A DNA stretch of 64,000 nucleotides from a bacterium (GTDB taxonomy: Bacteria; Patescibacteriota; Microgenomatia; Daviesbacterales; UBA10151), in NCBI GenBank assembly GCA_021786105.1, contig JAJYNW010000015.1, forward strand, positions 12,685 through 76,684, written 5' to 3'. Below the pieces are notes generated by a model, which made no database searches, was not told where the DNA came from, and saw nothing but the letters and a program-made list of their open reading frames with translations. The translations under genes were made by a program, and so were the position numbers. Each line of letters begins with the position of its first letter. Positions within the stretch are counted from its first letter, which is position 1. Shown piece after piece: positions 38,215 through 57,682 of this stretch.

Positions 38215-38242
38215 ATAAATATTAGGTTATAATCTAACTACC

Positions 38243-38845
38243 ATGCCCGAGGAAGAGAAACAAAAACCCTCTAAAAAGGAGACTCCAAAGCATCCAGAGC
38301 GAGAATCTGTCGGGCCGGAATTTTTTACCCCTAAGATGATGGAAACAGAAGAGATTAAAACCTTGCTCTCTTGGGAAGCGCCGTCCCGGCCTTTCCGGAA
38401 AAAAGACCGTTCGTATTACACTACTATTATTATTTTGGTGGTGTTGATAGTGTTAATTGTTTTTCTTTGGCTGGGGGATTTTTTACTGATTGGTGTAATT
38501 TTATCTTTTGGCTTTGTTGCCTATGTTTTAGCATTTGTACCGCCACACAATATCAAATATAAAATTTCTACTCAGGGGATTACCATTGGGGAAGATTTCT
38601 ACTTTTGGCATTTTTTGGATGCTTTTTGGTTTAAGGAAAAAGACGGGTCAAAAGTATTACATATCCAAACGCGCCTGTCCTTTCCTGCTCAACTGATGTT
38701 GGTTTTGGGCAATATGAGTGAGAAGGGGGTTAAAAAAGTGGTAGCTAGGTTTTTGCCGTTTGTAGAAGTGCCATACAAAACCTGGATGGAGAAATGGTCG
38801 GATGGTTTACAAAAGCATTTTCCTTTAGAAAATGTTCATCATTAA
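38243..38845 (+). CDS. Hypothetical two-TM membrane protein
   Basis: 200 aa; two TM helices centrally. Confidence 0.35.
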   Translation: MPEEEKQKPSKKETPKHPERESVGPEFFTPKMMETEEIKTLLSWEAPSRPFRKKDRSYYTTIIILVVLIVLIVFLWLGDFLLIGVILSFGFVAYVLAFVPPHNIKYKISTQGITIGEDFYFWHFLDAFWFKEKDGSKVLHIQTRLSFPAQLMLVLGNMSEKGVKKVVARFLPFVEVPYKTWMEKWSDGLQKHFPLENVHH

Positions 38846-38916
38846 TTTTAAGGTTTATCCCTTGTGATTGGTTTACTGTTGCCGAGTTTGATTTTATAGT
38901 ACAATAACCCCTGTTT

Positions 38917-38992
38917 GCGCCTGTAGCTCAGCGGATAGAGCGCAACGTTGCGGACGTTGAAGTCGGGGGTTCAATTCCCTCCAGGCGCACCA
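38917..38992 (+). tRNA. tRNA-Arg (GCG)
   Basis: GCGCCUG acceptor, anticodon loop UUGCGGA, encoded CCA. Confidence 0.8.
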
Positions 38993-38997
38993 AGGGA

Positions 38998-39085
38998 GGT
39001 GGGGTCGCATAGTGGCCTAGTGCGCTGGTTTCGAAAACCGGTATACCGTAAGGTATCGTGAGTTCAAATCTCACCCCCACCGCCA
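38998..39085 (+). tRNA. tRNA-Ser (CGA)
   Basis: Anticodon loop UUCGAAA, long variable arm, encoded CCA. Confidence 0.8.
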
Positions 39086-39086
39086 T

Positions 39087-39158
39087 GCCCTCGTAGGCTA
39101 ATGGATAGACCCCGGGATTCCGGATCCCGTGATGTGGGTTCGATTCCCACCGAGGGCA
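39087..39158 (+). tRNA. tRNA-Arg (CCG)
   Basis: GCCCUCG acceptor, anticodon loop UUCCGGA. Confidence 0.75.
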
Positions 39159-39167
39159 CTTGTTATA

Positions 39168-39580
39168 TGAAACGTGAGTTTTCAGCAGGTGGGATTGTTT
39201 TTAATAATGAGGGTCAGGTGTTGGTAACCCAGCACTCTCAAAATAAGCATTGGAGTTTCCCCAAAGGTTTACTTGATCATCCTGAGCAAACTACAGAAGA
39301 ATCAGCATTAAGAGAAGTTAGGGAAGAGGGGGGAGTGGAGGCAAAAATTGTCGGCAAGGTGGGTTATAACAAGTATGTCTATACTTTTAATGGAGAGAAA
39401 ATCTTTAAAGCGGTAACTTATTTTTTAATGGAATATGTCTCAGGAGATATTAAAGATCATGATTGGGAAGTGTCTGAGGCTGGTTGGTATGAACCGGAAG
39501 ACGCTTTAAAACGACTTACATTTAATCAGGATAAGGAATTGCTAAAGAAAGCTTTAGAAATAAGGGAGGTGTCATCCTGA
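39168..39580 (+). CDS. NUDIX hydrolase
   Basis: Nudix box ESALREVREEGGVEA; the track ORF start at 39101 overlaps tRNA-Arg, so the Met at 39168 is used. Confidence 0.7.
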
Positions 39581-39643
39581 GCGAAGCGAAGGATCTCTCG
39601 CGGATGCGAGTATTCCTGAAACAAGTTCAGAGATTCTTCGGCT

Positions 39644-40228
39644 ATGTCTCAGAATGACAAAAAACAATTTGTTTCCCGGGGCGGGATAAAACTGCAGGCA
39701 GTCTTAGATAAGTTTCAAATTGATGTTAAAGATAAAGTAGTTTTGGATGTGGGTTCTTCCACCGGCGGATTTGTGGATTGTCTTTTGCAGCAGGGTGCTA
39801 AAAAAGTTTATGCGGTGGATACGGCTTATGGGGAATTGGCTTGGAGACTTAGAAATGATCCAAGGGTGGTGGTGATGGAGCGGATTAATATTTTGCATCT
39901 GGAAAGTTTACCTGAACCAGTCGATTTAATTACCATTGATGCCGGTTGGACTAAGTTAGAGCTAATCTTACCGATTGTAAAGAAGTTCCTCAAACCTGAT
40001 GGTTTTATTATTGCTTTACTTAAGCCTCACTATCAAGCAGATAAAAAAATCCTTAGAAAGGGTGTAGTTCCTGAGGATTTAGTAGAAAGTATTAAGAATC
40101 AAGTATTAAGGATTATAGAAGAATTAGGATTTAAGATTCAAGGGGAAATGGAATCGCCGATTTTAGGTGGTGCAGGAAACAGGGAATATCTACTTTTTTG
40201 CGAAGTAAAAAAGCAAGCAGGCTTTTGA
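39644..40228 (+). CDS. TlyA-family rRNA 2'-O-methyltransferase (FtsJ-like)
   Basis: SRGGIKLQAVLDKF and VLDVGSSTGGFVDCLLQQGAKKVYAVD SAM-binding motif. Confidence 0.7.
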   Translation: MSQNDKKQFVSRGGIKLQAVLDKFQIDVKDKVVLDVGSSTGGFVDCLLQQGAKKVYAVDTAYGELAWRLRNDPRVVVMERINILHLESLPEPVDLITIDAGWTKLELILPIVKKFLKPDGFIIALLKPHYQADKKILRKGVVPEDLVESIKNQVLRIIEELGFKIQGEMESPILGGAGNREYLLFCEVKKQAGF

Positions 40229-40238
40229 AAAAAGATTC

Positions 40239-40451
40239 TTACTTCTTCTTTTTTTGAGAAATGAAGAGATAAATTAAGGGTAAAATGCCAATAGAATTAA
40301 TAACCAGTAAAGCAATGAACCAATAAAGCTGTTTATTCCGGGCCGCCCGCCACAGGGCAAAACCTTTTAAAACTAAATCAAGGATGGCAAATGGTGCCAA
40401 CCAGGCAAAGGGACCAAAATTATACATGTGGTAAAAATATCCCGGCATCAT
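40239..40451 (-). CDS. Small two-TM membrane protein (PLD-N-like)
   Basis: 70 aa, two TM helices, poly-Lys tail. Confidence 0.3.
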   Translation of the reverse strand: MMPGYFYHMYNFGPFAWLAPFAILDLVLKGFALWRAARNKQLYWFIALLVINSIGILPLIYLFISQKKKK

Positions 40452-40491
40452 AATTTAAGTACACCACTTTACGCCAAAAATTGCAAGGGGG

Positions 40492-40580
<89 letters not shown>

Positions 40581-43662: not shown

Positions 43663-43932
43663 TTACTTTTGTAATCTATTCCAAAGCAAAGCAAAAACAT
43701 AACCAAAGACGTAACCTATTATGGCAGTAACGACTATTAAAGTTACCCATTTAACTACATCAAATGATTGGACAGTGAATGGATTATTCAAAAAATGAAT
43801 GCCGTAAACAAAATCCAGTATGGCTCCAGCCAAACCCATGGCCACCAGTAAGCCCCAGACAAAATGCCACAGCCCGGCAAATGTTCCCACCACCAACGCT
43901 GTTTTATTGGGATTTAATTTCAAGTTTCTCAC
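43663..43932 (-). CDS. Small three-TM membrane protein
   Basis: 89 aa, hydrophobic. Confidence 0.3.
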   Translation of the reverse strand: MRNLKLNPNKTALVVGTFAGLWHFVWGLLVAMGLAGAILDFVYGIHFLNNPFTVQSFDVVKWVTLIVVTAIIGYVFGYVFALLWNRLQK

Positions 43933-44016
43933 CCCCTCTAAATTAGGTGTACATCGTTGGGTTTAAAAATGCAAGATCAGTTGGTATAATTGCAGAGCTA
44001 TTTAACAATTAAATAT

Positions 44017-44091
44017 TCCCCTGTAGCTCAACGGTAGAGCAGGAAGCTGTTAACTTCAAGGTTCGTGGTTCGAATCCACGCGGGGGAGCCA
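44017..44091 (+). tRNA. tRNA-Asn (GTT)
   Basis: Acceptor UCCCCUG/CGGGGGA, anticodon loop CUGUUAA, encoded CCA; 3' end overlapped by the recombinase ORF. Confidence 0.8.
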
Positions 44092-45579
44092 AGGTGTTTT
44101 CTGTATAACCTGCTGATTATCGCGCAGTGTCGCGAAAATCGGAGTTGGGACAGTTGCAAAAATCTTCTTATTTTTAACCATTACCTTCTCATAAAAGAAC
44201 CTTAAGTAGTGCCGCTTCATAAAGGGTGGCGCATCCTTATAAGTCGCGTAAATATCGCGTGTGAAGGCCAATGTATCGTCAATCAGGTTGATATCGATTC
44301 TGCAGCGGTCATCGACATCCTGTAATTGTGTTTCCATTTGTCTTACCTGATCCTGTAGCTCGGTGTGCTTGCGCTTAAACACTTCCCGGTCGATTGTTCC
44401 CTCAATCAGCGCATCCTCAAGCTTATTTCTCTTCATCTCAAGGGCTAGTTTCTGATTAAGAATGCCCTGCTTGACACTTGTGGCATTTGCGCGGCTCTCT
44501 TCCAGTTTCTCGCGCGTTTTTCGGACAACGGCTTCGATAAAATCAGGGCTAAACTGCATATTCTTAAATTCCTGCTCAACCTGATACTCAAGATCATCCA
44601 CTTCTACATATGGTGCGCGACAACCATTTCGTTCTCGCTTAGGGCAATGATAATAGGCTATCTTGCCGCCTCGAGCGCGCAGTTTATGCGCGTTCTTATG
44701 CCATTCAGCCACATAACGCTGACCACATTCGGAACAGTAGACAAAACCGCCTAAGAGCCAGTTGTGTATTCGGCGACGCATTAGAAAGTTGCGATGCTTG
44801 GCCAGAACATACTGGCAGGTGTCATATATGTCTTTTGAAATAATTGGTATGTGATTGCCCATCTTTCCTTCGCCGTGCCAACGAATCCAGCCGTAGTAGA
44901 AGGGGTTGTTGAGAATGGTGTGAATAACGCTGTGACCCAAACCTGTGCCAGTTCGCGACAAGATATTGCGTTCTGCCAGCCAATCCTGAATCTCAATGAT
45001 GGAATAGTTGCCTGTGGAGTAAAGTTCATACAGTTCTTTGATAATTGGCGCAGTGTAGGGGTCAGGCTCGCAGGTTTTGCGCTCTCTGTCACCGCCAACA
45101 GTTCGGTAGCCAATAGGCGGTGGTGTAGGTTGCCAACCTTCCCGGAATTTTTGTACCAGCGCGTCACGCGTGCGCTGGCCGTTTACATCAGATTCCCATT
45201 CAGCGACACTAGCGAGAATATTAGCAATAAGACTCGATCCTTGCGTCACATTGCCTTCTAAGACAGAAATCATCTGAAGCCCTTTTGACTCGATCTCTTT
45301 GCGGGTATCGCGAAAATCTGAAACATTGCGCGCAAAGCGGTCGATTTTGTAGATAATCAGCGCGTCAACTTTGAACTCATCGACTGCTTTAAGAAGTTCT
45401 TGGAAGGCTGGGCGTTGCGTGGTGCGCCCGCTTTTGCCATCATCGAGAAATATGTGCTTTACATGGTAATCGTGGCTACGCGCATAATCCATACAGGCGC
45501 GTTTTTGGTTCTCCAACGAGAAGCCTTCAGTCGCCTGTTCATCGGTTGAAACGCGCAGGTATAAGTAGCAGGTATTCAT
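44056..45579 (-). CDS. Large serine recombinase (resolvase-family catalytic domain + recombinase domain + zinc ribbon)
   Basis: YLRVSTDEQ catalytic Ser motif, DRFARN; CSECGQ...YYHC zinc ribbon. The track ORF extends to 45816, but the Met at 45579 precedes the catalytic motif. The last 12 aa are read-through into the tRNA. Confidence 0.8.
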   Translation of the reverse strand: MNTCYLYLRVSTDEQATEGFSLENQKRACMDYARSHDYHVKHIFLDDGKSGRTTQRPAFQELLKAVDEFKVDALIIYKIDRFARNVSDFRDTRKEIESKGLQMISVLEGNVTQGSSLIANILASVAEWESDVNGQRTRDALVQKFREGWQPTPPPIGYRTVGGDRERKTCEPDPYTAPIIKELYELYSTGNYSIIEIQDWLAERNILSRTGTGLGHSVIHTILNNPFYYGWIRWHGEGKMGNHIPIISKDIYDTCQYVLAKHRNFLMRRRIHNWLLGGFVYCSECGQRYVAEWHKNAHKLRARGGKIAYYHCPKRERNGCRAPYVEVDDLEYQVEQEFKNMQFSPDFIEAVVRKTREKLEESRANATSVKQGILNQKLALEMKRNKLEDALIEGTIDREVFKRKHTELQDQVRQMETQLQDVDDRCRIDINLIDDTLAFTRDIYATYKDAPPFMKRHYLRFFYEKVMVKNKKIFATVPTPIFATLRDNQQVIQKTPWLPRVDSNHEP

Positions 45580-45788
45580 ATTCCCCGGTTTAGGTCGCTG
45601 AACCTCATTTTCATCGGGCGCTGTCCGTATCTTCGTGCTATCTTTGCGGCTTCTTTGTTGATTATGTCCAGATACGGCTTCGTTTTTTCTTTCGCCTGCT
45701 CGTAGGTCATCACGCCATGTCGCATCGCCAGATGTATCGCGCGCGTCTCTGCCAGCAATTCTCGCAAGTTTATCTTTTCGTTCTTCAT
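45576..45788 (-). CDS. Small hypothetical protein upstream of the recombinase
   Basis: 70 aa, helical; stop overlaps the recombinase start. Confidence 0.3.
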   Translation of the reverse strand: MKNEKINLRELLAETRAIHLAMRHGVMTYEQAKEKTKPYLDIINKEAAKIARRYGQRPMKMRFSDLNRGI

Positions 45789-45840
45789 AATGTCTTATAG
45801 TCGTATCAATATTCATAAGATTTTTAGCTTATTGCAAGCC

Positions 45841-46227
45841 TTAAGTTTGATTTTCCTTTGCGCGTTTCCAAGTCGCCACATCGGTAAAGATAATACTTAA
45901 CGGCTCGCCATCCTTACTCTCGTGCTGTATCCTGTCGGTCTCAATCATTCCGTGGTCTGATTTCAAAAGAAAGATAATGACAGAAGGGCTTTTAAGTCCA
46001 AGTGTCTTTAGGGTCAGCCGTTGGTGATCCATTATGCGGTCTACCGCTCCGCAAAAGTCCTCATTAGCCTCGGACCAGCGTTTTAGACTATCTGTACTTA
46101 CCCCTAAACGCTCGGCAAACTCTTCAAGAAAAGGTATTTTCCGGGCGTTTTTGCACTCTATGAGGTACTTTTCCGCCTCTTTTATAAACTCTCCTTTGTA
46201 CTTAGTTGGCCTACCCATTTTTGTCAT
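45841..46227 (-). CDS. Phage-type HTH protein (terminase small subunit-like N-terminus)
   Basis: MTKMGRPTKYKGEFIKEAEKYL resembles the phage Nu1/terminase-small HTH. Confidence 0.4.
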   Translation of the reverse strand: MTKMGRPTKYKGEFIKEAEKYLIECKNARKIPFLEEFAERLGVSTDSLKRWSEANEDFCGAVDRIMDHQRLTLKTLGLKSPSVIIFLLKSDHGMIETDRIQHESKDGEPLSIIFTDVATWKRAKENQT

Positions 46228-46982
46228 ACTGATTTTTTCTGCTGTTCACCATGTTTTTCAAAATATTCCTTAACTTTTGCATTAAAAACCTTGCCTTTGT
46301 TCTCAATAGTAGGATCCTGTTTTATCTCCCTGACATACTGATAAAACATGTTTGGGGGTAGTCCTTTTTCTAATGCGCGCAAATAGGTTAATTTTAGTGC
46401 CCAAGGATGGTCTGGCTCTAGCGCTATATGTGCCTCATTGGCCGCAACCTCACCCTCGTTAGTGGGATTAAAAAATTTACTTGTATAGTTTTTTTCCACT
46501 TCCATACCTAAAAACTCTTTATCGGCGACATATTCGCTTTTATTACTCTCTGTTGGATTTAATTCGCTTATATTAGATTGAGTAGCACTAGTGGTACCAT
46601 TTTGTATCCCATCCGTCTCCAAATTGGATCCATTATTATTAGTAAGTGAGGGTAAATCCGAAGGTTTATATCTATCACTTTTAATTTGTTGATACTTTCC
46701 CCAATTTATAAATTCAACAAACCACTCTTCAGTTTTCAGATTAGGCCACCAATATATCAATCCCGCATCGTGCATTTCTTCTAAATAATGCTTAATTTTC
46801 TTAAATGACCATTTCTTCAAAGGAACGACAGTACCTTTTATGGACTCCGCTTCTCCTCGCATTCTTCCATCATCATCAGCGTGAGCAATCATCCAAGTAA
46901 AGAGTAGCTGCGCAGGTGGGGAAAGTTTATTTACCTGCAACGAGGTTGATATTTTGTTATGTAACATTCGAGCTTTAGCCAT
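46224..46982 (-). CDS. Phage replisome-organizer-like protein
   Basis: N-terminal LFTWMIAHADDDGRM winged-helix-like region; Asn/Ser-rich middle. Confidence 0.3.
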   Translation of the reverse strand: MAKARMLHNKISTSLQVNKLSPPAQLLFTWMIAHADDDGRMRGEAESIKGTVVPLKKWSFKKIKHYLEEMHDAGLIYWWPNLKTEEWFVEFINWGKYQQIKSDRYKPSDLPSLTNNNGSNLETDGIQNGTTSATQSNISELNPTESNKSEYVADKEFLGMEVEKNYTSKFFNPTNEGEVAANEAHIALEPDHPWALKLTYLRALEKGLPPNMFYQYVREIKQDPTIENKGKVFNAKVKEYFEKHGEQQKKSV

Positions 46983-47241
46983 GATTATTTTTATTTATTC
47001 GCGCTAAGGCGATACCCTTTTTTATTCTTTTGCTCATTTGCTGTTTATAGTAGGCATCGGTTAGCTTTTTTGCTCGTACATGGGTAAGTACAAGATTTAC
47101 CCATTGTTCAGCAATTTTATCTATTTTCAGGTCCTTATTACTGTCGTTTTTGCTAATCATTTTTGTGAAAAAAGCCTGTCTTTTAATGACCTCAAAACTT
47201 CTGAGTATCGCCTCGCGTCGAGCTTTAAGCCACCAGACCAA
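46975..47241 (-). CDS. Small basic hypothetical protein
   Basis: 88 aa. Confidence 0.25.
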   Translation of the reverse strand: MVWWLKARREAILRSFEVIKRQAFFTKMISKNDSNKDLKIDKIAEQWVNLVLTHVRAKKLTDAYYKQQMSKRIKKGIALARINKNNHG

Positions 47242-47495
47242 TAGTCGTTGGCTAGTTGTTCACAAACAGATTTATTGGCAAAAATGAACCAGAAGAATTT
47301 ACTTTCTTTTTGGAGTCTTAGTAGTTGTACAGAAGAACAGATTAGCCCAGCTGCCTCGCCGAGGTCTTTCGTAAAATATTCATCAATATACGCCTTATCC
47401 ATATACATATATGATCAGGCATATCCGTGAGGTTGAATACACGAGGTAAAAACTACTTCAGCCTTATTTTGGAGCAATTTTGAGGATATTTGAGG

Positions 47496-47942
47496 TTATG
47501 GTTTAATTTCTACTTTACAATTCAGACCGAACCCCTTGTCTACAATAAAAAAGTCGTTAACCTTATCCTTCACCAAACCGAGCTCTTTTCTAATTGTTTG
47601 GATCGTATCTCGCGCTCTTCGATCTGGAGTTGAATCACTGTATTCGCGAGCCTTATTCAAAACCTCAGCTGTTTGATCGGCTGTATATATTTTCCCTGGA
47701 TATTGGATCAAAAGTGACAATAATAGATAGCCGTTGTCTCTAGGACCAAAGTGGCCTGTATGGTTTTTACCAGATCTGTCTATATAAGTAACATTTCCGG
47801 TGCTTTTATAAAATTCTAAAGTGTTCGATCGATCCGCTAACATACCCCGCTGATCTATTATTTTTTGTTTATTATTTCGTGGATTGGTTTGCCCAGAAAT
47901 TAAAACATAGTCCTGAAGTTGTTTATTTTTCCCCATATACAT
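47496..47942 (-). CDS. OmpR/CadC-type winged-helix DNA-binding protein
   Basis: LLLSLLIQYPGKIYTADQ...TIRKELG resembles trans_reg_C. Confidence 0.35.
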   Translation of the reverse strand: MYMGKNKQLQDYVLISGQTNPRNNKQKIIDQRGMLADRSNTLEFYKSTGNVTYIDRSGKNHTGHFGPRDNGYLLLSLLIQYPGKIYTADQTAEVLNKAREYSDSTPDRRARDTIQTIRKELGLVKDKVNDFFIVDKGFGLNCKVEIKP

Positions 47943-48009
47943 CTACATTTCCGGGCAGGAGATCTTTATTTTAGCAGAAAATTATGTTCAGTTCTTCTCT
48001 CTCGACAGC

Positions 48010-48681
48010 TTACAGCGAGGTAAGTCCGTCATACTTTGCGGCGCGGTGATTAGTGTTATCCGTAAAATAGTACTGAGCAATTTTGTATCCATAAGCGGTT
48101 TGGTCAAGTTCCAGCGCCATGCGCACTACCTTCGCGACATAGCCGACAAACTCGCCTCCAGATGGGATTATGCGCAACTCATCTACAATAACGCGCACTC
48201 GCGCGCCCTGTCGGCTCACGCTGCGCACATAATGCGCATCAACGGAGAAATTACGCCCTTGTGTTGCAAAAAGTCGCGCCGGGTTTGATACACCAACACG
48301 CGCGAGATCCACACCGAGTATAGAGTCTAGTTCTGACTGTTCCTCTTTTGTTTCAGGTGAAGAAAAGAAGTTCATGACTTTCTCCGCATCTCTTTGCTGT
48401 AGTGCGTTTTCAAAGGTATCCGTCAAAGCCACAACCTGTGTTTGTTTATCATCACTGACACCTGAAGCGCTAATTCCTTGCGCTTCGAGAACAATCTCGT
48501 TTCCGGTGTTTATCTGTTGAGTTTGGGGAGTAACGCGATGTGCAAACCACCCAATTGAAAAGCCCAGTAATAAGAATCCGGCAGGAACGAGTAGCATGAG
48601 CGCTTTGTATTTTTGGAAAGTGTTAAACATAATTTTATTTACCCCAAACACGAAAGATAATAAGACAAGGAACAGAGACAA
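48010..48681 (-). CDS. Membrane-anchored hypothetical protein
   Basis: Two N-terminal TM helices, soluble C-terminus. Confidence 0.3.
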   Translation of the reverse strand: MSLFLVLLSFVFGVNKIMFNTFQKYKALMLLVPAGFLLLGFSIGWFAHRVTPQTQQINTGNEIVLEAQGISASGVSDDKQTQVVALTDTFENALQQRDAEKVMNFFSSPETKEEQSELDSILGVDLARVGVSNPARLFATQGRNFSVDAHYVRSVSRQGARVRVIVDELRIIPSGGEFVGYVAKVVRMALELDQTAYGYKIAQYYFTDNTNHRAAKYDGLTSL

Positions 48682-48847
48682 TAATGCTTCCTAAAATAAA
48701 TTGAGTAAAGTTTGGCTCAGTCCAAGACCTTAGAACTGTCGTTCCCTGAGTTTCTACAACTGGGGTAAGTGTAAAAACAAACATTAGGGCGATCAAAACA
48801 ACCCAAACAGTCAAAATTACCTTTTGGCTTTTATTTAATGTTTTCAT
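48635..48847 (-). CDS. Small two-TM protein
   Basis: 70 aa. Confidence 0.25.
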   Translation of the reverse strand: MKTLNKSQKVILTVWVVLIALMFVFTLTPVVETQGTTVLRSWTEPNFTQFILGSIIVSVPCLIIFRVWGK

Positions 48848-49095
48848 TCTCCATGCTCACCCCCTTTGGGTTTTTGCTGGAGAGGAATGTAAAAGCTCCC
48901 CGCTAGCGATGGCTTGCGCCACCTGCAAACCTTTCGGTCTGCAACCTTCGCAGGTGCTCTAACGAGGAGCTGTTTCCTGCGAAGGTTTTGATGCCATGCC
49001 CCTTACGGGGTTTAGGCAATATTAAAATGTGAGGTAATTATACAACATTTGATGTATAATTGGGTGGAAGTTTTTTGTCTTAATAAGGGTATTAC

Positions 49096-49281
49096 ATGCC
49101 AAGAGCCATAAAACTATTAAGAATACGCGAGGCGGCGGAAATGTTGGGGGTAAACCCCGAAACGCTACGGCGTTGGGACAAAAGCGGCAAACTTAAACCT
49201 ATCATCATAAGTAAACGCGGTGATAGGCGCTATAAAAAGGAGGATATTGTACGGTTCCTTAAAAAACTTGCCGAACAATAA
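49096..49281 (+). CDS. Excisionase/MerR-type HTH DNA-binding protein
   Basis: IREAAEMLGVNPETLRRWDKSGKL helix-turn-helix. Confidence 0.55.
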   Translation: MPRAIKLLRIREAAEMLGVNPETLRRWDKSGKLKPIIISKRGDRRYKKEDIVRFLKKLAEQ

Positions 49282-49295
49282 CTATAAAAATAAAT

Positions 49296-51998
49296 ATGGA
49301 ATATGTTGATGAGCACGCCACGCGCAAAAAGTGGATAGACGATAAACTCAAAAAATCGGGTTGGGAAAACATTATCCCCTACAAAGAGGGCTTAGATACA
49401 ACCACACTACACAAAACCGCAGTTGAGGAGTTTGTTACCGCGACTGGACCCGTTGATTATGCGCTTTTTGCCAATGGTAAATTAGTTGCGTTTGTTGAGG
49501 CTAAAAAAATCGGTCTTGGTCCCCAAAATGTATTATCCCAAGCTCAACGTTATGTAAAAGGTGCCCAAGCTCAAGGACAGGAAGTGCCGTTTATTTATTC
49601 CACAAATGGCGAAGTGATTTGGTTCCAAGATTTACGCATAAGCCCAAGCCGCTCACGCCAAGTCGCGGAATTTCACACACCAAAGGCACTTATTGAATAC
49701 CTCACCAACCCGACCCATGAGAATGTACGTTGGTTTACCGATAACCCGCCCGATTATGCCAAGTTACGCTACTACCAACGCGACGCTATTGTTGCCATTG
49801 AAAACGCCATAGCTAATCACAAACGCTCAATGCTTGTTGCTATGGCAACTGGTACGGGCAAGACATTTACTATTGCCTCACTCGCTTACCGCTTGCTCAA
49901 ATCGGGTGTAAGCAAACGCATTTTGTTTTTAGTTGACCGTAAAGCGTTAGCCGCCCAAGCAGTGATGGAGTTTGCGGCATATGAGGCGGAAAACGGCTTA
50001 AAGTTTAACCAAATATACCAAGTGTATAGCCAACGTTTTCACCTAGACGATTTTGAAAGTGATGAAAAAGTTGATTTTAATATGGTACCCACAAGTTACC
50101 TTACCGACCCCGACGGGAACCAAGTATTTGTATATGTATCAACCATACAGCGGATGCAAATTAACTTATACGGCAAGGAGGGAATGTTTAGTTACAGTGG
50201 TGATTATGACCCCGACGATGATGCCGATAAAATTGATATGCCTATTAACGCCTTTGATACGATTGTTGCCGATGAATGTCATAGAGGTTATACCTCACAG
50301 GAAGTGAGCAAGTGGCGTGGCGTACTTGACCATTTTGATGCCTTAAAAATAGGACTTACGGCAACACCAGCGGCACACACAACTAGCTATTTTAAGGAAA
50401 TTGCCTACCGCTACACCTATGAGCAAGCCGTACAAGATGGGTATTTGGTTGATTATGACGCCGTAAAAATATCCTCAGGTGTTCGTATTAAAGGCATTAC
50501 CCTAAAAGAGGGTGAAGAGGTTGAGCAAGTTGATACCGAAACGGGAGCGCAACAACTTGATTTACTTGAGGACGAGCGGCATTTTGAGGTTGCTGATGTT
50601 GAGCGCGATATTACCGCGCCCGATAGCAACCGCAAAATTATCCAGGAGTTTGCAAAATATGCCCTTGAGCAAGAAAAAGAATTAGAGCGTTTCCCCAAAA
50701 GTTTGATCTTTGCCCATAATGACCTGCCACACACGTCTCACGCCGACCAGTTGGTTGATATTTGCCGTGATGTATTTGGCAGGGGTGATGCATTCGTGCA
50801 AAAAATAACGGGTTCACCCACCGTTGACCGACCGCTCACCCGCATAAAGGAGTTTAGAAACCGCCCCGACCCTCATATTGTTATCACCGTGGACATGCTA
50901 TCAACAGGTGTCGATATACCCTCAATTGAAAATATTGTGTTTTTGCGCGCTGTAAAATCGCGTATTCTCTTTGAGCAAATGCTTGGGCGTGGCACAAGAC
51001 TTTGCAAAAACTTCCCCAATGGTCTAGGCACGCTCGAAAAAACTCACTTTACGGTGTTTGACTGCTTTGACGGCACGCTTTTGGAAGCATTCAAAAATAG
51101 CACAGGTATTACCCAGGTCACACCAGTAAACCCAACCCGTACTATTGAACAAATTATTAGCGATATAAACAACAACATTGATGTTGAATACAATACGCGT
51201 TGCCTCGTAAAGCGATTGCAACGCATCGCCAAAAACATTACCTCTGAGGGTCGGGAAATGTTTGCTAAATACATAGCCGATGGCGACATTGCCGCCTTTG
51301 CCAAAAACTTACCCGATGCTTTAGCTACCGAAAGGGTTGCAACTCTTAAAATACTTACTGACCAAAAGTTTATTGACCTGCTTATACATTACCCGCGCCC
51401 CCCAAAGCGGTTTATACGCGCTATTGAGCAAGAAGACATTGTAGCCTCGGAATATATATTTAGGACAACCGACGGGCGCGAGTTAAAGCCCGAGGACTAT
51501 ATAACCCAATTCGAGCGGTTTGTTAAGGAAAACCCCGAACACATTGAGGCAATAAGCATTGTACTTAATAAGCCAAAAGGGTGGAACACGGAAGCACTTA
51601 AGGAATTGCGTACCTCGCTTGCCCAACAACCCGAACGTTTTACCGAGGAAAACCTGCGCCGAGCCTACAAATACCCGCTTGCCGACATTATTTCAATGGT
51701 TAAGCACGCCGCCAAAGATGAACCGCTACTGTCCGCCAAAGAGCGAGTTGATTTAGCAATGGCAAAAGTAATGGGTGATAAAAAAGTTACCGACAAACAA
51801 GAGCAATGGTTGGAGCTTATAAAGCTACACCTTGTTGAAAACTTAACAATTGATGTGCAGGACTTTGATGAAATGCCAATCTTTGTTAATCTCGGTGGAA
51901 GCTTTAAGCGCATTAACGCCGATTTTGACGGTAAGTTAATGCCATTTATAAATGAGATTAACGCAACAATACCAGCCGTTTATGCCTATGCAAACTAA
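49296..51998 (+). CDS. hsdR: Type I restriction enzyme R subunit
   Basis: Walker A MATGTGKTFT, DEAH box VADECHRG, helicase C motifs. Confidence 0.9.
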   Translation: MEYVDEHATRKKWIDDKLKKSGWENIIPYKEGLDTTTLHKTAVEEFVTATGPVDYALFANGKLVAFVEAKKIGLGPQNVLSQAQRYVKGAQAQGQEVPFIYSTNGEVIWFQDLRISPSRSRQVAEFHTPKALIEYLTNPTHENVRWFTDNPPDYAKLRYYQRDAIVAIENAIANHKRSMLVAMATGTGKTFTIASLAYRLLKSGVSKRILFLVDRKALAAQAVMEFAAYEAENGLKFNQIYQVYSQRFHLDDFESDEKVDFNMVPTSYLTDPDGNQVFVYVSTIQRMQINLYGKEGMFSYSGDYDPDDDADKIDMPINAFDTIVADECHRGYTSQEVSKWRGVLDHFDALKIGLTATPAAHTTSYFKEIAYRYTYEQAVQDGYLVDYDAVKISSGVRIKGITLKEGEEVEQVDTETGAQQLDLLEDERHFEVADVERDITAPDSNRKIIQEFAKYALEQEKELERFPKSLIFAHNDLPHTSHADQLVDICRDVFGRGDAFVQKITGSPTVDRPLTRIKEFRNRPDPHIVITVDMLSTGVDIPSIENIVFLRAVKSRILFEQMLGRGTRLCKNFPNGLGTLEKTHFTVFDCFDGTLLEAFKNSTGITQVTPVNPTRTIEQIISDINNNIDVEYNTRCLVKRLQRIAKNITSEGREMFAKYIADGDIAAFAKNLPDALATERVATLKILTDQKFIDLLIHYPRPPKRFIRAIEQEDIVASEYIFRTTDGRELKPEDYITQFERFVKENPEHIEAISIVLNKPKGWNTEALKELRTSLAQQPERFTEENLRRAYKYPLADIISMVKHAAKDEPLLSAKERVDLAMAKVMGDKKVTDKQEQWLELIKLHLVENLTIDVQDFDEMPIFVNLGGSFKRINADFDGKLMPFINEINATIPAVYAYAN

Positions 51999-53409
51999 TA
52001 CAAATATTGTCAATAAATTATGGGGATACTGTCATGTTTTGCGCCATGACGGTATGGACTACGGCGATTACGTTGAGCAACTAACCTACTTGCTTTTCCT
52101 CAAAATGGCGGAGGAAAAAGGGGCAGTTATACCCAAGGAATATTCTTGGTCGGTATTAAAAACTAAATCGGGTACGGAGTTGCTTGATTTTTATAGCGAG
52201 CTTTTGCGTGGGCTTGCCAAACAAGAGGGGTTATTGGGTGCGATATTTGTAGAGGCGCTTTCAAAGTTTACAAAGCCCGTAGGCCTTAAAAGGTTAATTG
52301 ATTTGATTGATGAAATTGAGTGGTCGGCGTTAAACATTGATGTTAAAGCCCAAGCCTATGAGGGGTTATTAGAAAAATCAGCCGCCGAAGGCAAAAAGGG
52401 TGCAGGACAATACTTCACGCCCCGTGTGCTTATCCAATCAATTATAAATGTAATGAAACCCGACCCAAGGGTGTCAAAAGATTTTACCGTTTGTGATCCC
52501 GCCGCAGGTACTGGCGGTTTTTTGCTTAGTGCTTACGAGTGGTTTTTACACCAAACGGGTGGCGCAATTAACCGTGATGATTTGGAGCGCATAAAGAAAA
52601 ACACTTATTTTGGCACCGAGCTTGTAGCACGTCCTCGAAGGCTTGCACTTATGAACCTTTATTTGCATGGAATAATTTCAAATATTCGCTTGGGCGATAG
52701 TATTTATGAACCCGACCGAGGCGAGAGGTTCGATGTAGTTTTGACTAACCCGCCCTTTGGTACCAAAGGTGCAAACCAAATACCCGAACGGCAAGACTTT
52801 ACGGTCGATACAAGTAACAAGCAACTTAATTTTGTCCAACACATTCTTACCATCCTTAAACCTGGTGGTAGGGCGGCTATTGTGTTGCCCGACAACGTGC
52901 TATTTGGCGACCAAGCCGCAGAGGTATTCAAAATACTCATGCAAGATTGTAACCTGCATACTATTTTGCGTTTACCAAGAGGTACTTTTACCCCATACAG
53001 CCAAGGAGTAAAGGCAAATGTAGTGTTTTTTACCAAGGGGATACCCACCGAAAATGTGTGGATATATGATGCACGTACCAATGTGCCAGGGATAACTAAA
53101 AAAGACCGTCCATTAACACATAGACACTTTGAGGAGTTTGAAAAGTGTTATGGCGATAACGCGAGTGGACAATCACCCCGTGATGAAAATCACTCTAAGG
53201 AAAACCGATGGAAAAAGTTTACTGTGGTTCAAGTTAAGGAGAAAAATTACAAACTGGATAGCTTTAAGTGGCTAAAAGAGGAAGACATTGAGAATAGTAA
53301 CGAGATTGGTGAACCAGAGGAAATTATTGTAGACGTAAAGTCTAGTCTTGAGGAAGCGCTTGCAAGCCTTGATAAGGTCTATGAGCAACTTACTAACGAT
53401 GACAAATAA
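51952..53409 (+). CDS. hsdM: Type I R-M N6-adenine DNA methyltransferase M subunit
   Basis: LWGYCHVLRHDG N-terminus, NPPFG catalytic motif, SAM-binding region. Confidence 0.9.
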   Translation: MRLTQQYQPFMPMQTNTNIVNKLWGYCHVLRHDGMDYGDYVEQLTYLLFLKMAEEKGAVIPKEYSWSVLKTKSGTELLDFYSELLRGLAKQEGLLGAIFVEALSKFTKPVGLKRLIDLIDEIEWSALNIDVKAQAYEGLLEKSAAEGKKGAGQYFTPRVLIQSIINVMKPDPRVSKDFTVCDPAAGTGGFLLSAYEWFLHQTGGAINRDDLERIKKNTYFGTELVARPRRLALMNLYLHGIISNIRLGDSIYEPDRGERFDVVLTNPPFGTKGANQIPERQDFTVDTSNKQLNFVQHILTILKPGGRAAIVLPDNVLFGDQAAEVFKILMQDCNLHTILRLPRGTFTPYSQGVKANVVFFTKGIPTENVWIYDARTNVPGITKKDRPLTHRHFEEFEKCYGDNASGQSPRDENHSKENRWKKFTVVQVKEKNYKLDSFKWLKEEDIENSNEIGEPEEIIVDVKSSLEEALASLDKVYEQLTNDDK

Positions 53410-54619
53410 TGGAACTTATAAAATCGGTGACATTTGTGACGTAAAAACGGGTAAAAAGGATGTTAATGCCGAAAATGTTGATGGAAAATATCCCTTTTTT
53501 ACCTGTGCGCAGGGTATTCATAAAATCAATACCTATACTTTTGATGATGAAGCTGTTCTTGTAGCAGGAAACGGTTTTTTTAACGTTAAGTATTACAAAG
53601 GCAAGTTTGACGCATACCAACGAACTTATGTGCTACACAATTTCAAAAGTAACATTAGAGGGAAATACCTTTATTACTTCATTAATCACAGGCTTGACGA
53701 TATAACTAAGGATAATAGAGGTAGCACAATAAGGTATATAAGGCTTGGTGATATTACAGAGCAACAGGTTTCCCTACCTCCAATTGAACAACAGGACAAA
53801 GCAATCGAACTACTCGACCAAGCAATACAAGAAATTAGTTTAGGAAGTGAAAAGGTTAGTAAATCACGATTGCTCGTTCAAAAGTTTAAGCAAGCAATTT
53901 TATCCGCCGCAGTTACAGGTAAACTTACAGAAAATTGGCGCGCAAAAAATTATGACGACGACACTTATCAAGATTTTAACCTTGAAAATGGGGAGGTTAT
54001 ACAAATCCCTGCACTTTGGGAAAGAAGGGCTATTGGAGATTTTGTTTTAGACATAGAGGCAGGCAAAAACTTTACTTGCCCCGAAGTGCCTGTAAGTGGC
54101 AACAATGTTGGGATAGTAAAAATTAGTGCTGTAACTTGGGGTGAATTTGATGAAAAGGAAACTAAAACCGTAGAGGATGAGAGTAAAATTGATGAAAAGT
54201 TATTTATTAACAAGGAAGATTTTTTAATCTCACGAGCAAATACAATTGAATTAGTCGGAGCTTCCGTGGTTGTTGGAGAGGTTAGGCATAAGATTATGCT
54301 AAGCGATAAGGTATGGCGTGTTAATTTTGAGGATATAAACAAGGAATATGTTAATTACTACCTAAAATCACGTATTGGCAGATCCGAAATTGAGGCACGA
54401 GCGACAGGCAACCAACAATCAATGCGCAACATATCCCAAAGTAACTTTAAGGCAATTAACTTACCTACTCCAAGTGATAATGAACAAGCCGAAATTGTAA
54501 GAATTGTAAAGCAATATCTTGAGATTGCAAACCAAGTTGAAAAGCAAATTGAAAAAGCCGAAGCACGGGTGTCAAAACTTACCCAAGCCATTTTGGCAAA
54601 AACGTTTAGACAAGAATAA
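53399..54619 (+). CDS. hsdS: Type I R-M specificity subunit
   Basis: Two target-recognition domains separated by a coiled-coil conserved region; starts in the hsdM stop (GATGAcaaaTAA). Confidence 0.8.
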   Translation: MTNNGTYKIGDICDVKTGKKDVNAENVDGKYPFFTCAQGIHKINTYTFDDEAVLVAGNGFFNVKYYKGKFDAYQRTYVLHNFKSNIRGKYLYYFINHRLDDITKDNRGSTIRYIRLGDITEQQVSLPPIEQQDKAIELLDQAIQEISLGSEKVSKSRLLVQKFKQAILSAAVTGKLTENWRAKNYDDDTYQDFNLENGEVIQIPALWERRAIGDFVLDIEAGKNFTCPEVPVSGNNVGIVKISAVTWGEFDEKETKTVEDESKIDEKLFINKEDFLISRANTIELVGASVVVGEVRHKIMLSDKVWRVNFEDINKEYVNYYLKSRIGRSEIEARATGNQQSMRNISQSNFKAINLPTPSDNEQAEIVRIVKQYLEIANQVEKQIEKAEARVSKLTQAILAKTFRQE

Positions 54620-54627
54620 AAATAACC

Positions 54628-55470
54628 ATGTCATATGTATCAAGTGGGTTAATTAACCAAGTATCGGGTGGTGTATCGCAAAGCGCCGTTGATGCAATAT
54701 CGGCGTTTCAAAACAATGTACGCTCCCTTTTACAACTAAGCTACGACACTTTTTTACAAGGAAGTTATGCTAACGACACCGAAATAAAGGACTTTAATGA
54801 TGTTGACATTGTGGCATTACAAAAACCATTACAAGGGCTACTTTCAAGTTTTAGCGCGTCAACAAACTTGTTTTACGACGTTAAAACTAAGTTGGAAACA
54901 AACCAAAATTATAGAGGCCGAATAACGGTTGGGCGCAAATGTTTAACCCTTGATTTAGGCACAAGAAAAGCGGATATTGTGCCAGCAAGACGTACGATGG
55001 GCGGGCAACCTAATGCTTATGGCGAGCCGATTTTAATTGGGCAAAACATTCCAAATTATCCAAAAACTCACATAAGTATCGGTCAAGCTAAAAACCAACG
55101 AACAAACAACAATTATAAACGTGTGGTTCGTATGGTTAAAAATTATGTAAACAAGTGGAACCTTAAAGGTGTAGCTCCTTCCTTTTATGTTGAATGTATG
55201 ATTTACAGCTACACCGACGCCACGTTTTCCAACGACCTACCTTACACACTTAACAATATACTTACACACATGGTTGGTAATAATTTCAGTGCAGGTTTTC
55301 GTACCGTTGCAGGGGACAAAATTGTAATTTCACAAACCGAGTGGTTTCCCCAAAGTTTTTTCGCTTTTAGGCAACACGTAGCGGCAAAGTTGCCTTACCT
55401 TAGTTCAGCGGTTATGGCTACCAGCGAAGCAAATGCAAATAGCTATTTCAGGAGCTTTTTTAATATATGA
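54628..55470 (+). CDS. SMODS/CD-NTase-like minimal nucleotidyltransferase
   Basis: GSYANDTEIKDFNDVDIVAL ([GS]x9-13DxD) and downstream KADIVPA third Asp. Confidence 0.5.
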   Translation: MSYVSSGLINQVSGGVSQSAVDAISAFQNNVRSLLQLSYDTFLQGSYANDTEIKDFNDVDIVALQKPLQGLLSSFSASTNLFYDVKTKLETNQNYRGRITVGRKCLTLDLGTRKADIVPARRTMGGQPNAYGEPILIGQNIPNYPKTHISIGQAKNQRTNNNYKRVVRMVKNYVNKWNLKGVAPSFYVECMIYSYTDATFSNDLPYTLNNILTHMVGNNFSAGFRTVAGDKIVISQTEWFPQSFFAFRQHVAAKLPYLSSAVMATSEANANSYFRSFFNI

Positions 55471-56063
55471 AAGACCAGCAAAAGTACATTACATCAATAG
55501 TTTTGCTTGTAACTGCAATTTTTATTTTTGGCGAGTGGGTTGAAACATGGTTTGGCAAGGGAATTGCCTCATTTATTACATCAATTAGCACCGTTAGCGT
55601 AATTATTTATGGTTTATACCTTGCTTGGGATAAGTGGCTGTGGAAACAAAAAGGGTTAGCTTACATTTTAAGTAAGCTTGTCGGTTTTTATGAATACCCC
55701 GCGTTAGATGGCAAATGGAAAATAGTATATGAAAGCACTTTTGGAAATACTACAAAAGGCGCGGGTGAAGCAACAATTCAACAAAGCTATTCTTCTTTAT
55801 TTATTGAGGGAAACTTTGGGCAAAATTCATCATTTGATAGTTATTTTGCTCAACTAAAACAAAAAGAAAATGGTAAATGGTTTTTAGTTTATACCTACCG
55901 CAATAAGCCACATAGTACAAAACTTACCAATTCACCTTCGGGTGGTATGCACGAGGGGTTTGCTTACTTGGACGTAGTTGATAAAAACAAGTTGATAGGT
56001 TACTACTCCAATGATGAAAACCGTAAAACTAGAGGCAAATTGACTTTTACAAAAATAAATTAG
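55467..56063 (+). CDS. Two-TM partner protein (SLATT-like membrane effector candidate)
   Basis: Two N-terminal TM helices then a 130-aa soluble domain; ATGA overlap with the NTase gene. Confidence 0.4.
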   Translation: MKDQQKYITSIVLLVTAIFIFGEWVETWFGKGIASFITSISTVSVIIYGLYLAWDKWLWKQKGLAYILSKLVGFYEYPALDGKWKIVYESTFGNTTKGAGEATIQQSYSSLFIEGNFGQNSSFDSYFAQLKQKENGKWFLVYTYRNKPHSTKLTNSPSGGMHEGFAYLDVVDKNKLIGYYSNDENRKTRGKLTFTKIN

Positions 56064-56067
56064 ACCT

Positions 56068-56526
56068 ATGATGAAATTATTAACCGAAGACTTTGTACAA
56101 GAGCAAATAATAAAGTATTTAACCAGCAAAGGGTGGGGCACGAGCCTAAAATCAAAAACCCTCAAGGAGCATGGGGTTGATATTAAGGTGCGCAATGATA
56201 AGTTTCCGCGGTATTGGCTTATTGAATGTAAAGGTGATGCTAGTACAAATGCCAAGTACCCAAAATCACATAGGGAAGTACACTTTAACCTTGCCTTAGG
56301 GCAAATTATTACCCGCATGCAAACCAAGAGGAGGGCTAGAGGTTACAAATACGGCTACAAGTACGGTGTAGGCTATCCTGCGTCATTTAGGGACTTGGTA
56401 ATGCGCCGTTTGCCTTATGATGTTTGCTATAAGCTCAATTTGTACGTGTTTTTAGTTGATGAAGGCGGTGCAGTGGAGAAACTTGAATGGCGTGATTTGA
56501 AAAATGCACAAGTAAAAGCTAAGTAG
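56068..56526 (+). CDS. PD-(D/E)xK restriction-endonuclease-fold protein
   Basis: HGVDIKVRND...YWLIECKGD (D...E-x-K) core. Confidence 0.45.
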   Translation: MMKLLTEDFVQEQIIKYLTSKGWGTSLKSKTLKEHGVDIKVRNDKFPRYWLIECKGDASTNAKYPKSHREVHFNLALGQIITRMQTKRRARGYKYGYKYGVGYPASFRDLVMRRLPYDVCYKLNLYVFLVDEGGAVEKLEWRDLKNAQVKAK

Positions 56527-56805
56527 CAACTTGGAACGCAGGGTCGCGCTGGAGTTTTTTAATTTCAAGCCACCGTTGCTTTAACTCACCCATATATCCA
56601 ACGTGTTGAAAGGCTTGGATGATAGCCTTAAAATCAATTGGTATAGGGTGTTTAGGCGCGGGGAGCAAATGTCAGGTACTAACAACAAGTACAAAAGCAC
56701 CATGAGCTTCGCGAAGATAACAGCCATTTCATGAAAAGAACCAAATAAGAAAAAAATGGTAGAATAGTGAAAGCGACGGGCAAAAGGTTCTGCGAGGAGG
56801 AACGA

Positions 56806-56900
56806 TGAATGAAAAACTATATTCGAAGAAAAAATTCTTCTCATTAATTCATGAAAAATTATATTCGAAGCATAAATACTTCTCATTAGTTTATGAAGAA
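56806..56900 (+). repeat. Three imperfect tandem copies of a gene-start segment (ATGAAAAAYTATATTCGAAG...)
   Basis: Copies at 56807, 56847 and 56891; only the third continues into the DUF1801 ORF. Confidence 0.6.
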
Positions 56901-57258
56901 CTATAAAGCAAAAGATGTTGATGAATTCATTGCAAGTGCACCAGAAGAAGCCCAGTCTAAACTTAGGGAAATAAGAGTGGTTGTAAAATCGATTATTCCA
57001 AACGCAGAGGAGAAAATAAGCTGGGGCGTGCCTTTCTACTGGTATCAGGGTGCTCTTGCTGGATTTACTCCATGTAAAAGCTATGTGCTCTTTGGCCTCG
57101 TGACCGTGCTTGACAATAAAGACCGCGAAACGTTCGGAAAAAAGGGTTACAAAACTGGCAAAAAAACCATACAAATCAAGTTCGACCAAAAAGTTCCGAT
57201 CACATTGATAAAGCAAATTCTAAAAACACAAGCAAAAATGAATGAAGCCAAAAAATAA
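56893..57258 (+). CDS. DUF1801 (YdhG-like) domain protein
   Basis: MKNYKAKDVDEFIASAPEEAQSKLREIR...EEKISWGVPFY typical of DUF1801. Confidence 0.6.
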   Translation: MKNYKAKDVDEFIASAPEEAQSKLREIRVVVKSIIPNAEEKISWGVPFYWYQGALAGFTPCKSYVLFGLVTVLDNKDRETFGKKGYKTGKKTIQIKFDQKVPITLIKQILKTQAKMNEAKK

Positions 57259-57334
57259 TAGAAATTTACTCAGCGCCGCGAGTGTTTTTTCTTACAGCTT
57301 ATTTTTTATCAATTCAATATAATTTACTTCAAAG

Positions 57335-57682
57335 ATGCCCTCTTTAATAATCATTATTTTTGGTTATTTTCGAGCTTTGCTTGGTGTTTTGAAAGATCCA
57401 GCTGTTAAAGGTTTGGCCTTATTTATCACACTCTATCTTTTGTTTGGAACCTTCTTTTATCATCGAACTGAGGGATGGAGTTACCTGGATTCGGCTTATT
57501 TTTGTGTGGTTACGCTAGCTACTGTCGGTTTTGGAGATTTTACCCCCAAAACCAGCCTGGGAAAATTTTTTACCATTTTTTATATCATGATAGGCATTGG
57601 GTCGTTTGTCGCCTTTGCCACGGCTCTGGCCCAGAATATGGTTGAAAGAAGGAGCAATAGACGTAAAAGGCTTTCAAAATGA
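57335..57682 (+). CDS. Two-TM potassium channel (ion-trans_2)
   Basis: Selectivity filter TLATVGFGDFTP between two TM helices. Confidence 0.65.
   Translation: MPSLIIIIFGYFRALLGVLKDPAVKGLALFITLYLLFGTFFYHRTEGWSYLDSAYFCVVTLATVGFGDFTPKTSLGKFFTIFYIMIGIGSFVAFATALAQNMVERRSNRRKRLSK

Follow-up and report, generated by a model that had tools for sequence, protein, structure and literature searches.

A probable two-gene CdnE-Cap15 CBASS behind a type I restriction–modification operon, with an adjacent stand-alone nuclease-fold gene, on a tRNA-Asn-linked island

Cap15 is the commonest transmembrane (TM) effector of cyclic oligonucleotide-based anti-phage signalling systems (CBASS); it senses uracil-containing cyclic dinucleotides, oligomerizes and harms the inner membrane (PMC10419184). 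Operons pairing it with a cGAS/DncV-like nucleotidyltransferase (CD-NTase) of clade E include those of ClCdnE, EfCdnE and LpCdnE, given as examples of type I CBASS (PMC10442399), and the two-gene Ssc-CBASS of Staphylococcus schleiferi, which consists of CdnE03 and Cap15, signals with cyclic GMP-AMP (cGAMP) and has a type I restriction–modification (R-M) system alongside (PMC10686824). Here, a cdnE-cap15 pair followed by a gene for a 152-aa nuclease-fold protein was analysed in a 64,000-nt stretch of contig JAJYNW010000015.1 (positions 12,685 to 76,684, assembly GCA_021786105.1), hereafter the window. The original prediction had tentatively read the three genes as one SMODS/SLATT/nuclease system. 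Our analysis corrects this to a two-gene CdnE-Cap15 CBASS plus an independent nuclease, and we consider it highly probable that cdnE and cap15 make up a type I CBASS complete in itself and that the third is an autonomous nuclease gene independent of it. As CdnE-Cap15 is among the best-characterized type I architectures, the CBASS itself adds little, and the defence repertoires of the Candidate Phyla Radiation (CPR) have already been surveyed (PMC12259885).

The three open reading frames (ORFs) were found on the forward strand as predicted, encoding 280, 198 and 152 aa. Homologues of each protein were numerous and identical copies were present on independent metagenome contigs, so these are real genes rather than chance ORFs. 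The predicted translational coupling of cdnE and cap15 was seen as a 4-nt ATGA overlap (TATATGAAAG), and the set does lie directly 3′ of hsdS, which ends 8 nt before cdnE. The spacing between cap15 and the 152-aa gene is 4 nt (ACCT) rather than the 5 bp given previously. The nucleotidyltransferase (NTase) and PD-(D/E)xK motifs quoted in the prediction are present, with their key residues invariant within each family.

The 280-aa protein was matched by 29 CBASS cyclase models of PADLOC, the best being PDLC00788 (2.5e-30), and has a precomputed match to PF26305 CD_NTase_C. A single-sequence search of the PDB matched RmCdnE (6e0k, 4.7e-15) and EfCdnE. When a family profile of 24 members was searched against the PDB, the five top matches were all CdnE enzymes, namely RmCdnE (3.7e-40), EmCdnE (4.7e-34), LpCdnE, EfCdnE and ClCdnE (down to 8.5e-26), followed by an unnamed CD-NTase at 5.5e-18 and by other clades at 1.5e-13 or weaker. 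The alignments to the CdnE structures were near full length (up to profile positions 1–261 of 282). The catalytic residues G45-S46, D58-x-D60 and D116 are invariant across the 24 family members. By this profile ranking of structures the protein is a CD-NTase closest to clade E, in agreement with its earlier reading as a SMODS/CD-NTase-type second-messenger synthase.

Three ‘lid’ positions that choose nucleotides have been defined in CdnE enzymes, and di-pyrimidine synthesis has been associated with a lid-1 Asn together with an (R/Q)xW motif at lid 3 (PMC10442399). Of these, the lid-1 Asn is conserved in the cyclase family as N143 and the lid-2 His as H148, on which basis the product is probably a cyclic dinucleotide containing uracil. 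The lid-3 Trp (W239) aligns to W281 of EfCdnE and is preceded at the −2 position by T237, so that the motif reads T-E-W and not the strict (R/Q)xW. The donor nucleotide may therefore not be limited to pyrimidines, and a mixed product such as cyclic UMP-AMP (cUA) would be as likely as cyclic di-UMP (cUU).

The 198-aa protein contains two hydrophobic segments (hydropathy peaks at residues 7–29 and 32–54), consistent with the two TM segments and soluble domain that had been predicted, the soluble part comprising approximately 125 aa. It matched Pfam Cap15_CD_rec (PF18153) over profile positions 2–122 of 122 (1.2e-15, 58.4 bits against a cut-off of 31.2) and the two-TM (2TM) effector models of PADLOC (2.3e-28), and its sole meaningful sequence match in the PDB was Yersinia Cap15 (7n34, 1.2e-5). 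An AlphaFold model built from 31 homologues (predicted local distance difference test score, pLDDT, 86.3) comprises N-terminal helices at residues 4–29 and 31–56 followed by an eight-stranded beta domain. The three best Foldseek matches of this model were the Cap15 receptor structures 7n34/7n35 (E 4.6e-8, target TM-score 0.82–0.86). These profile matches and the predicted structure identify the protein as a Cap15 with a beta-barrel cyclic-dinucleotide receptor domain. The SLATT-type effector that had been proposed was not borne out, as Pfam at E<=1 returned Cap15_CD_rec and Cap15_TM and no SLATT family; the match of the TM region to Cap15_TM was not itself significant (E 0.54).

The surroundings of cyclases that are closely to moderately related were compared in 9 distinct genomic contexts (cyclase identity 53–100 % with the window included, and 53–90 % between the window and the other contexts, of which L055 is the closest at 90 %). 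In all 9 (the window, L055, L051/52, L053/54, L056, L057, L058, L059 and L060), cdnE is followed by an overlapping cap15. The genes upstream of the pair vary, comprising HTH_17-hsdRMS in the window, L055 and L051/52, hsdRMS in L058 (where the contig begins within hsdR), a type III-like operon of N4/N6 methylase and Res helicase in L060, HTH_17 directly in L059, and in L057 a gene for a 493-aa protein that contains sigma-70 region 4 and faintly matches HARE-HTH; L053/54 and L056 have no R-M genes upstream of the pair. Two of the nine contexts, the window and L055, both nearest relatives, hold the 152-aa gene; it is missing from L051/52, L058, L060, L059, L057, L053/54 and L056, at variance with the proposed three-gene set. 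The most telling context for the pair as a unit is L059, a related island on a near-identical chromosome, in which the flanking chromosomal gene is 98.6 % identical to that of the window, the serine integrase 68 % and the HTH_17 protein 67 %, and in which the island cargo is cdnE-cap15 alone, with neither R-M genes nor the 152-aa gene.

The neighbours of cdnE-cap15 in the window are hsdR/M/S, the 152-aa nuclease gene and genes for DUF1801, Ion_trans_2 and an aldo-keto reductase. No Cap2/Cap3 (E1-E2/JAB) or HORMA/TRIP13 genes were found near the pair in the window, and a cyclase with Cap15 in their absence corresponds to a type I CBASS. The compact CBASS reading was thus upheld for the cyclase and its 2TM effector, a kind that fits the ‘type I-B’ class of Banh et al. 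2023 (PMC10686824). Its two genes probably share a transcript with the type I R-M operon that precedes them. A scan of positions 48600–57400 recovered promoter-like sites at the level of shuffled sequence (20 against an expected 20.0) and no convincing terminator between hsdS, cdnE, cap15 and the 152-aa gene, and is therefore uninformative on operon structure.

Beyond the domain identities, catalytic residues, Cap15 fold and pair conservation given above, we infer a trigger, a product and an abortive outcome by analogy with described homologues. The clade-E CD-NTase would be held inactive in the absence of a phage cue, the part played by a structured phage RNA in the staphylococcal homologue. 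The activated cyclase would then make a cyclic dinucleotide, probably uracil-containing, which would bind the cytoplasmic beta-barrel of Cap15. Ligand-bound Cap15 may oligomerize through its two TM helices and disrupt the inner membrane, and the infected cell would be expected to die ahead of phage release.

Several points weigh against this account of a clade-E cyclase, a uracil-containing signal and a separate nuclease. Pfam SMODS, the sole Pfam family in the scan of the cyclase, scored 22.9 bits, under its gathering score of 26.5. The NCBIfam models likewise remained below their cut-offs: CBASS_cyclase_b matched at 9.4e-17 (61.5 bits against 200), CBASS_cyclase_a at 32.9 bits against 200, and the top model, NF053871 DS2_2_antiphage (‘anti-phage nucleotidyltransferase’), at 8e-23 (81 bits against 350); a literature search did not trace the origin of the name ‘DS2_2’. 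Given these sub-threshold scores, the protein is best described as a divergent member of the CD-NTases. The staphylococcal CdnE03-Cap15 system signals by cGAMP (PMC10686824), and a confident prediction of the product is thus not possible. Finally, as the 152-aa gene begins 4 nt after cap15 and is kept in L055, its co-transcription and some functional interplay with the CBASS are conceivable in this lineage.

The fold predicted for the third gene was recovered. The 152-aa protein has a PD-(D/E)xK nuclease fold, in which E7, D38 and E53-x-K55 are invariant in the family and Q79 and R83 invariant or nearly so. Its nearest solved folds are XisH-family structures, with TM-scores of approximately 0.5. 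XisH (PF08814; PDB 2okf, 2inb) is a helper of the large serine recombinase XisF of the Anabaena/Nostoc fdxN element. By sequence, neither the single protein nor a profile of its close homologues matched anything in the PDB at E<=10. A profile of the broader family gave marginal matches to XisH sequences of the PDB (E 0.02–0.04), and in the full-length profile alignment the ExK and ALGQ motifs are common to both. No Pfam XisH match was obtained for the window protein at E<=1 or for 97 remote family members at E<=0.01. Weak Pfam matches of the window protein were NOV_C (0.032, 14.7 bits against 22.1) and Mrr_cat (0.14, 12.7 against 21). Among the 97 remote members, 10 matched Mrr_cat and 9 matched NOV_C at E<=0.01 (the best of all these matches being 1e-5), and some have HARE-HTH (9/97) or RAMA fusions. 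The 152-aa protein itself is a bare PD-(D/E)xK core in which no SAVED, CARF or other nucleotide-sensor domain was found, and it had no match among the defence-system hidden Markov models (HMMs) of PADLOC. Hundreds of homologues share 60–89 % identity with it, yet the family is a small one, with 265 clusters (50 % identity) in a set of 1.84 billion representatives. Copies from CPR and Acidobacteria are 60–64 % identical, which suggests horizontal mobility of the family.

Genes neighbouring the family were identified by iterative searches and counted in 42 non-redundant loci, with flanks of at most 10 kb; the recombinase of the window itself lies 10–12 kb away. The counts were 16 loci with an hsdR-like gene, 11 with hsdM, 12 with hsdS, six with a serine recombinase and one with a CD-NTase/Cap15 pair, this last being L016, in which the pair is non-adjacent, 4.8 kb downstream. 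In none of the 41 representative-genome loci does cdnE-cap15 stand immediately upstream of the family gene, and the position directly after cap15 is common to the window and its nearest relative L055 only. As a rule, the 152-aa gene follows closely on another gene of the same strand, which in many loci closes a type I, type III-like or type II R-M operon (gap −47 to +33 nt). The immediate upstream partners vary (HsdM-S fusions, HsdR, Res helicases, Dam/N4 methylases, DUF6996/6997, a Cas4-like nuclease and unknown proteins), and no single partner gene is conserved across the loci. A conserved two-gene module with the Cas4-like gene was considered and rejected, this neighbour being common to three loci only. 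Candidate defence genes PDC-S02 and PDC-S06 also adjoin family genes. Some copies lie elsewhere: in L018, where the flanking gene and the tRNA-Asn that follows it are those of the left flank in the window, the 152-aa gene is found amid housekeeping-type genes beside a subtilase and a Crp-like regulator, and in L016 the homologue sits after DnaJ. Large proteins tightly coupled to family genes were also observed, namely an 1118-aa protein with no Pfam or PADLOC match (L004, 2611–5967) and homologous proteins of approximately 790 aa in L029 (5300–7693, without a Pfam or PADLOC match) and L014 (10450–12807). These are candidates for unknown defence or R-M components.

Two alternative accounts of the locus were weighed against a self-contained cyclase–Cap15 pair. 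In the one, which the original prediction had itself named, the 280-aa protein would be an unrelated minimal nucleotidyltransferase (MNT), such as a toxin–antitoxin partner or an antibiotic NTase, and no signalling cyclase. The sub-gathering SMODS score speaks for this, yet no MNT, HEPN or antibiotic-NTase family was recovered at E<=1 in Pfam or NCBIfam, the 29 PADLOC cyclase models and near-full-length CdnE alignments (down to 3.7e-40) point to CBASS, and the partner gene encodes Cap15 and not HEPN. Profile and structure comparisons effectively refute this identity, and we regard it as extremely improbable. In the other, the locus would be a three-gene CBASS whose cyclase product activates the 152-aa protein, either as a second effector of nuclease type or as an obligatory accessory. 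Its same-strand position 4 nt after cap15, the retention of the trio in L055 (the closest relative, with a cyclase 90 % identical) and the general frequency of nuclease effectors in CBASS (PMC10419184) would fit this. Against these stand the missing gene in 7 of the 9 cdnE-cap15 contexts, the single, non-adjacent CD-NTase among 42 family loci, and a protein that amounts to a nuclease core with no SAVED, CARF or other sensor and no PADLOC CBASS-effector match. The effector classes Cap4, Cap5 and NucC were rejected on the same grounds of sensor, PADLOC match and recurrent CD-NTase linkage, and a three-gene system appears very unlikely. As no partner is conserved, and as the 152-aa gene occurs in only 2 of 9 CBASS contexts and a CD-NTase in 1 of 42 family loci, we conclude that it is an autonomous, mobile nuclease-fold gene that rides 3′ of R-M and defence cassettes of varying content, mainly in CPR genomes.

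What such an autonomous nuclease does was considered under two further proposals. It may be an XisH-like helper of the island’s serine integrase, controlling excision or integration as part of the island backbone and having no role as a defence nuclease, as the nearest folds would allow. The TM-scores to XisH are nevertheless only approximately 0.5, no Pfam XisH match was found in the window protein or the 97 members, and no XisI-like partner was seen among the neighbours. A serine recombinase lies within the fetched flanks of only 6 of the 42 loci, L012 and L018 hold the gene in contexts without one, and related islands such as L059 presumably excise and integrate without the 152-aa gene. Taken together, a helper role seems unlikely. 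Alternatively, the protein may be a restriction-type nuclease that acts autonomously and is merely carried along by R-M cassettes; it could be type IV-like or specific for DNA structure or damage. The cargo of the island would then include a third activity, in defence or DNA processing, independent of the other two. Consistent with this are the intact, invariant catalytic E...D...ExK residues, the close spacing, in many loci, behind R-M operons of type I, type III-like and type II kinds, the HARE-HTH (9/97) and RAMA fusions and Mrr_cat or NOV_C matches of remote members, typical of restriction enzymes, the 60–64 % identity between CPR and Acidobacteria copies suggesting horizontal mobility, and the adjoining PDC-S02 and PDC-S06 genes. 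The 152-aa form, in contrast, has no DNA-recognition domain and no defence-system HMM match, and some copies lie outside defence contexts, as by the subtilase and Crp-like regulator in L018 and after DnaJ in L016. We hold this restriction-type role to be possible. A larger claim, that the family represents undescribed mobile stand-alone XisH-like nucleases, mostly of CPR bacteria, which act as autonomous defence or DNA-processing genes and are carried at the 3′ end of R-M/CBASS cassettes by satellite-like islands with a serine integrase, or that the recurrent fusion of R-M with cdnE-cap15 reflects functional coupling of restriction to CBASS signalling beyond a common cargo space, is doubtful. 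The R-M-linked XisH-like family is in any case highly conserved and carries no assigned function.

The joining of CBASS to R-M operons was seen in several loci. In the window, L055, L051 and L058 the cdnE-cap15 pair stands head-to-tail with a type I operon, and in L060 with a type III-like one. In L016 (9986–19881), the gene order is 152-aa homologue, Cas4-like nuclease, PDC-S02, hsdM, hsdS, CD-NTase, 2TM effector and hsdR, so that a more distant CD-NTase-2TM pair (cyclase match PDLC00788, 3e-88) lies between hsdS and hsdR. Gene boundaries overlap from hsdM to the 2TM gene and hsdR begins 1 nt after it, so that a type I R-M operon here encloses a CBASS pair. The window-type fusions together with L016 indicate that the joining of CBASS with type I R-M is recurrent; type I R-M genes likewise flank the staphylococcal system (PMC10686824).

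The cdnE-cap15 pair, and probably the 152-aa gene with it, are cargo of an island of approximately 12.5 kb beside tRNA-Asn (44017–56526), resembling a phage satellite or a phage-inducible chromosomal island (PICI)-like element. The coordinates of its features are given in Table 1. The HTH_17 gene occupies the same position ahead of the cargo in related islands. A search of positions 43900–57400 found no notable attachment (att)-type direct repeats flanking the island, as expected for an integrase of the serine type. Within the 366-bp spacer after the 152-aa gene, a 42-bp tandem duplication with 86 % identity (56809–56892) lies immediately upstream of the start of the DUF1801 gene; each copy opens with ATGAAAAA, like that gene’s own start region, and the duplication could mark the right junction of the island. 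On the reverse strand at 48908–49018, just upstream of the HTH_17 gene, Rfam identified a full-length LOOT RNA (RF03000; 90 bits, gathering score 46.4). LOOT RNAs were also found in L055 (1233–1343, reverse strand), in the same position, and in L021 (14777–14905, reverse strand), and were missing from five other related loci scanned; this RNA may be a backbone element of these islands.

Table 1. Features of the tRNA-Asn-linked island, in window coordinates
Feature	Position	Strand	Basis or remark
tRNA-Asn(GTT)	44017..44091	+	Left island edge, overlaps 3′ end of integrase ORF; ARAGORN, Rfam
Large serine integrase	44056..45816	-	Pfam Resolvase, Recombinase, Zn_ribbon_recom; PHROG 95, 2e-104
TerS-like protein	45841..46227	-	PHROG 309, 3.6e-8
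Replication-initiator-like protein	46224..46982	-	PHROG 1408, 3.6e-10
HTH_17 (MerR/excisionase-type) gene opening the cargo unit	49096..49281	+	Pfam HTH_17; PHROG 66 (excisionase and transcriptional regulator), 3.4e-11
hsdR	49296-51998	+	Pfam ResIII/EcoEI_R_C
hsdM	about 52039-53409	+	Pfam N6_Mtase
hsdS	about 53360-54619	+	Pfam Methylase_S; ends 8 nt before cdnE
cdnE (CD-NTase, 280 aa)	54628..55470	+	CBASS cyclase, closest to clade E
cap15 (2TM + beta-barrel effector, 198 aa)	55467..56063	+	Pfam, PADLOC, PDB, AlphaFold/Foldseek
Stand-alone PD-(D/E)xK nuclease-fold gene, XisH-like / Mrr-NOV_C-like, 152 aa	56068..56526	+	Adjacent, co-oriented

The window, L014, L015, L019, L021 and L059 share a tRNA-adjacent island organization of serine integrase, TerS-like protein, replication-initiator-like protein, small unknown genes and HTH_17, after which a swappable cargo follows (type I R-M, Dam with DUF6996/6997, CBASS or PDC-S06). 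Related islands adjoin other tRNA genes and carry different cargo after HTH_17. The islands form a family of tRNA-adjacent elements with an HTH_17 cargo slot in which R-M and CBASS modules are exchanged. By the titles of related loci, which include CPR/Patescibacteria such as Microgenomates and Roizmanbacteria, the hosts are probably ultra-small CPR bacteria. The labels ‘uncultured Gammaproteobacteria bacterium’ or ‘Methylomirabilota’ on L010, L013, L015, L016, L018–L020, L027, L031 and L032 were considered untrustworthy; many of these contigs have CPR-like islands or the flanking genes of the window, and the labels look like automatic or mis-binned taxonomy. Elsewhere in the window, a transfer-messenger RNA (tmRNA; 35743–36163) whose tag peptide is long and unusual (GTSYLSRAAGKMAEQMSDFGRNLLVGSTRVAFA), a cobalamin riboswitch (16372–16595) and a cluster of six tRNAs, four Ser and two Arg (37172–40580), were observed.

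In comparison with known systems, the 152-aa protein is like XisH in being a small stand-alone PD-(D/E)xK protein encoded on the same island as a large serine recombinase. It differs in that no xisI-like partner was seen among its neighbours, that it has no Pfam XisH match and that most loci of its family show R-M genes and no recombinase. With Mrr and NOV_C (DUF3883) it has in common the E...D...ExK core and an R-M genomic context, and some of its relatives are fused to HARE-HTH or RAMA; unlike these, it consists of the catalytic domain alone, lacking the N-terminal DNA-recognition module, and scores under the gathering cut-offs of both. The Cap15 of the window has the beta-barrel fold of Yersinia Cap15 (7n34/7n35), to which it is 22–25 % identical over approximately 122 columns, and departs from the Cap15 reference family in a TM region without a significant Cap15_TM match. 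The cyclase is only approximately 25–30 % identical to solved CdnE enzymes and falls under the Pfam SMODS and NCBIfam cut-offs; its lid-1 Asn and lid-2 His match those of ClCdnE and EfCdnE, whereas its lid 3 reads T-E-W, unlike the (R/Q)xW enzymes. As in described CdnE-Cap15 type I CBASS, the operon comprises two genes with the cyclase first and Cap15 second, and, as in Ssc-CBASS, type I R-M genes flank the pair. Unlike the known CdnE-Cap15 operons, the pair in the window stands head-to-tail with hsdRMS, 8 nt apart, on a satellite-like island with a serine integrase.

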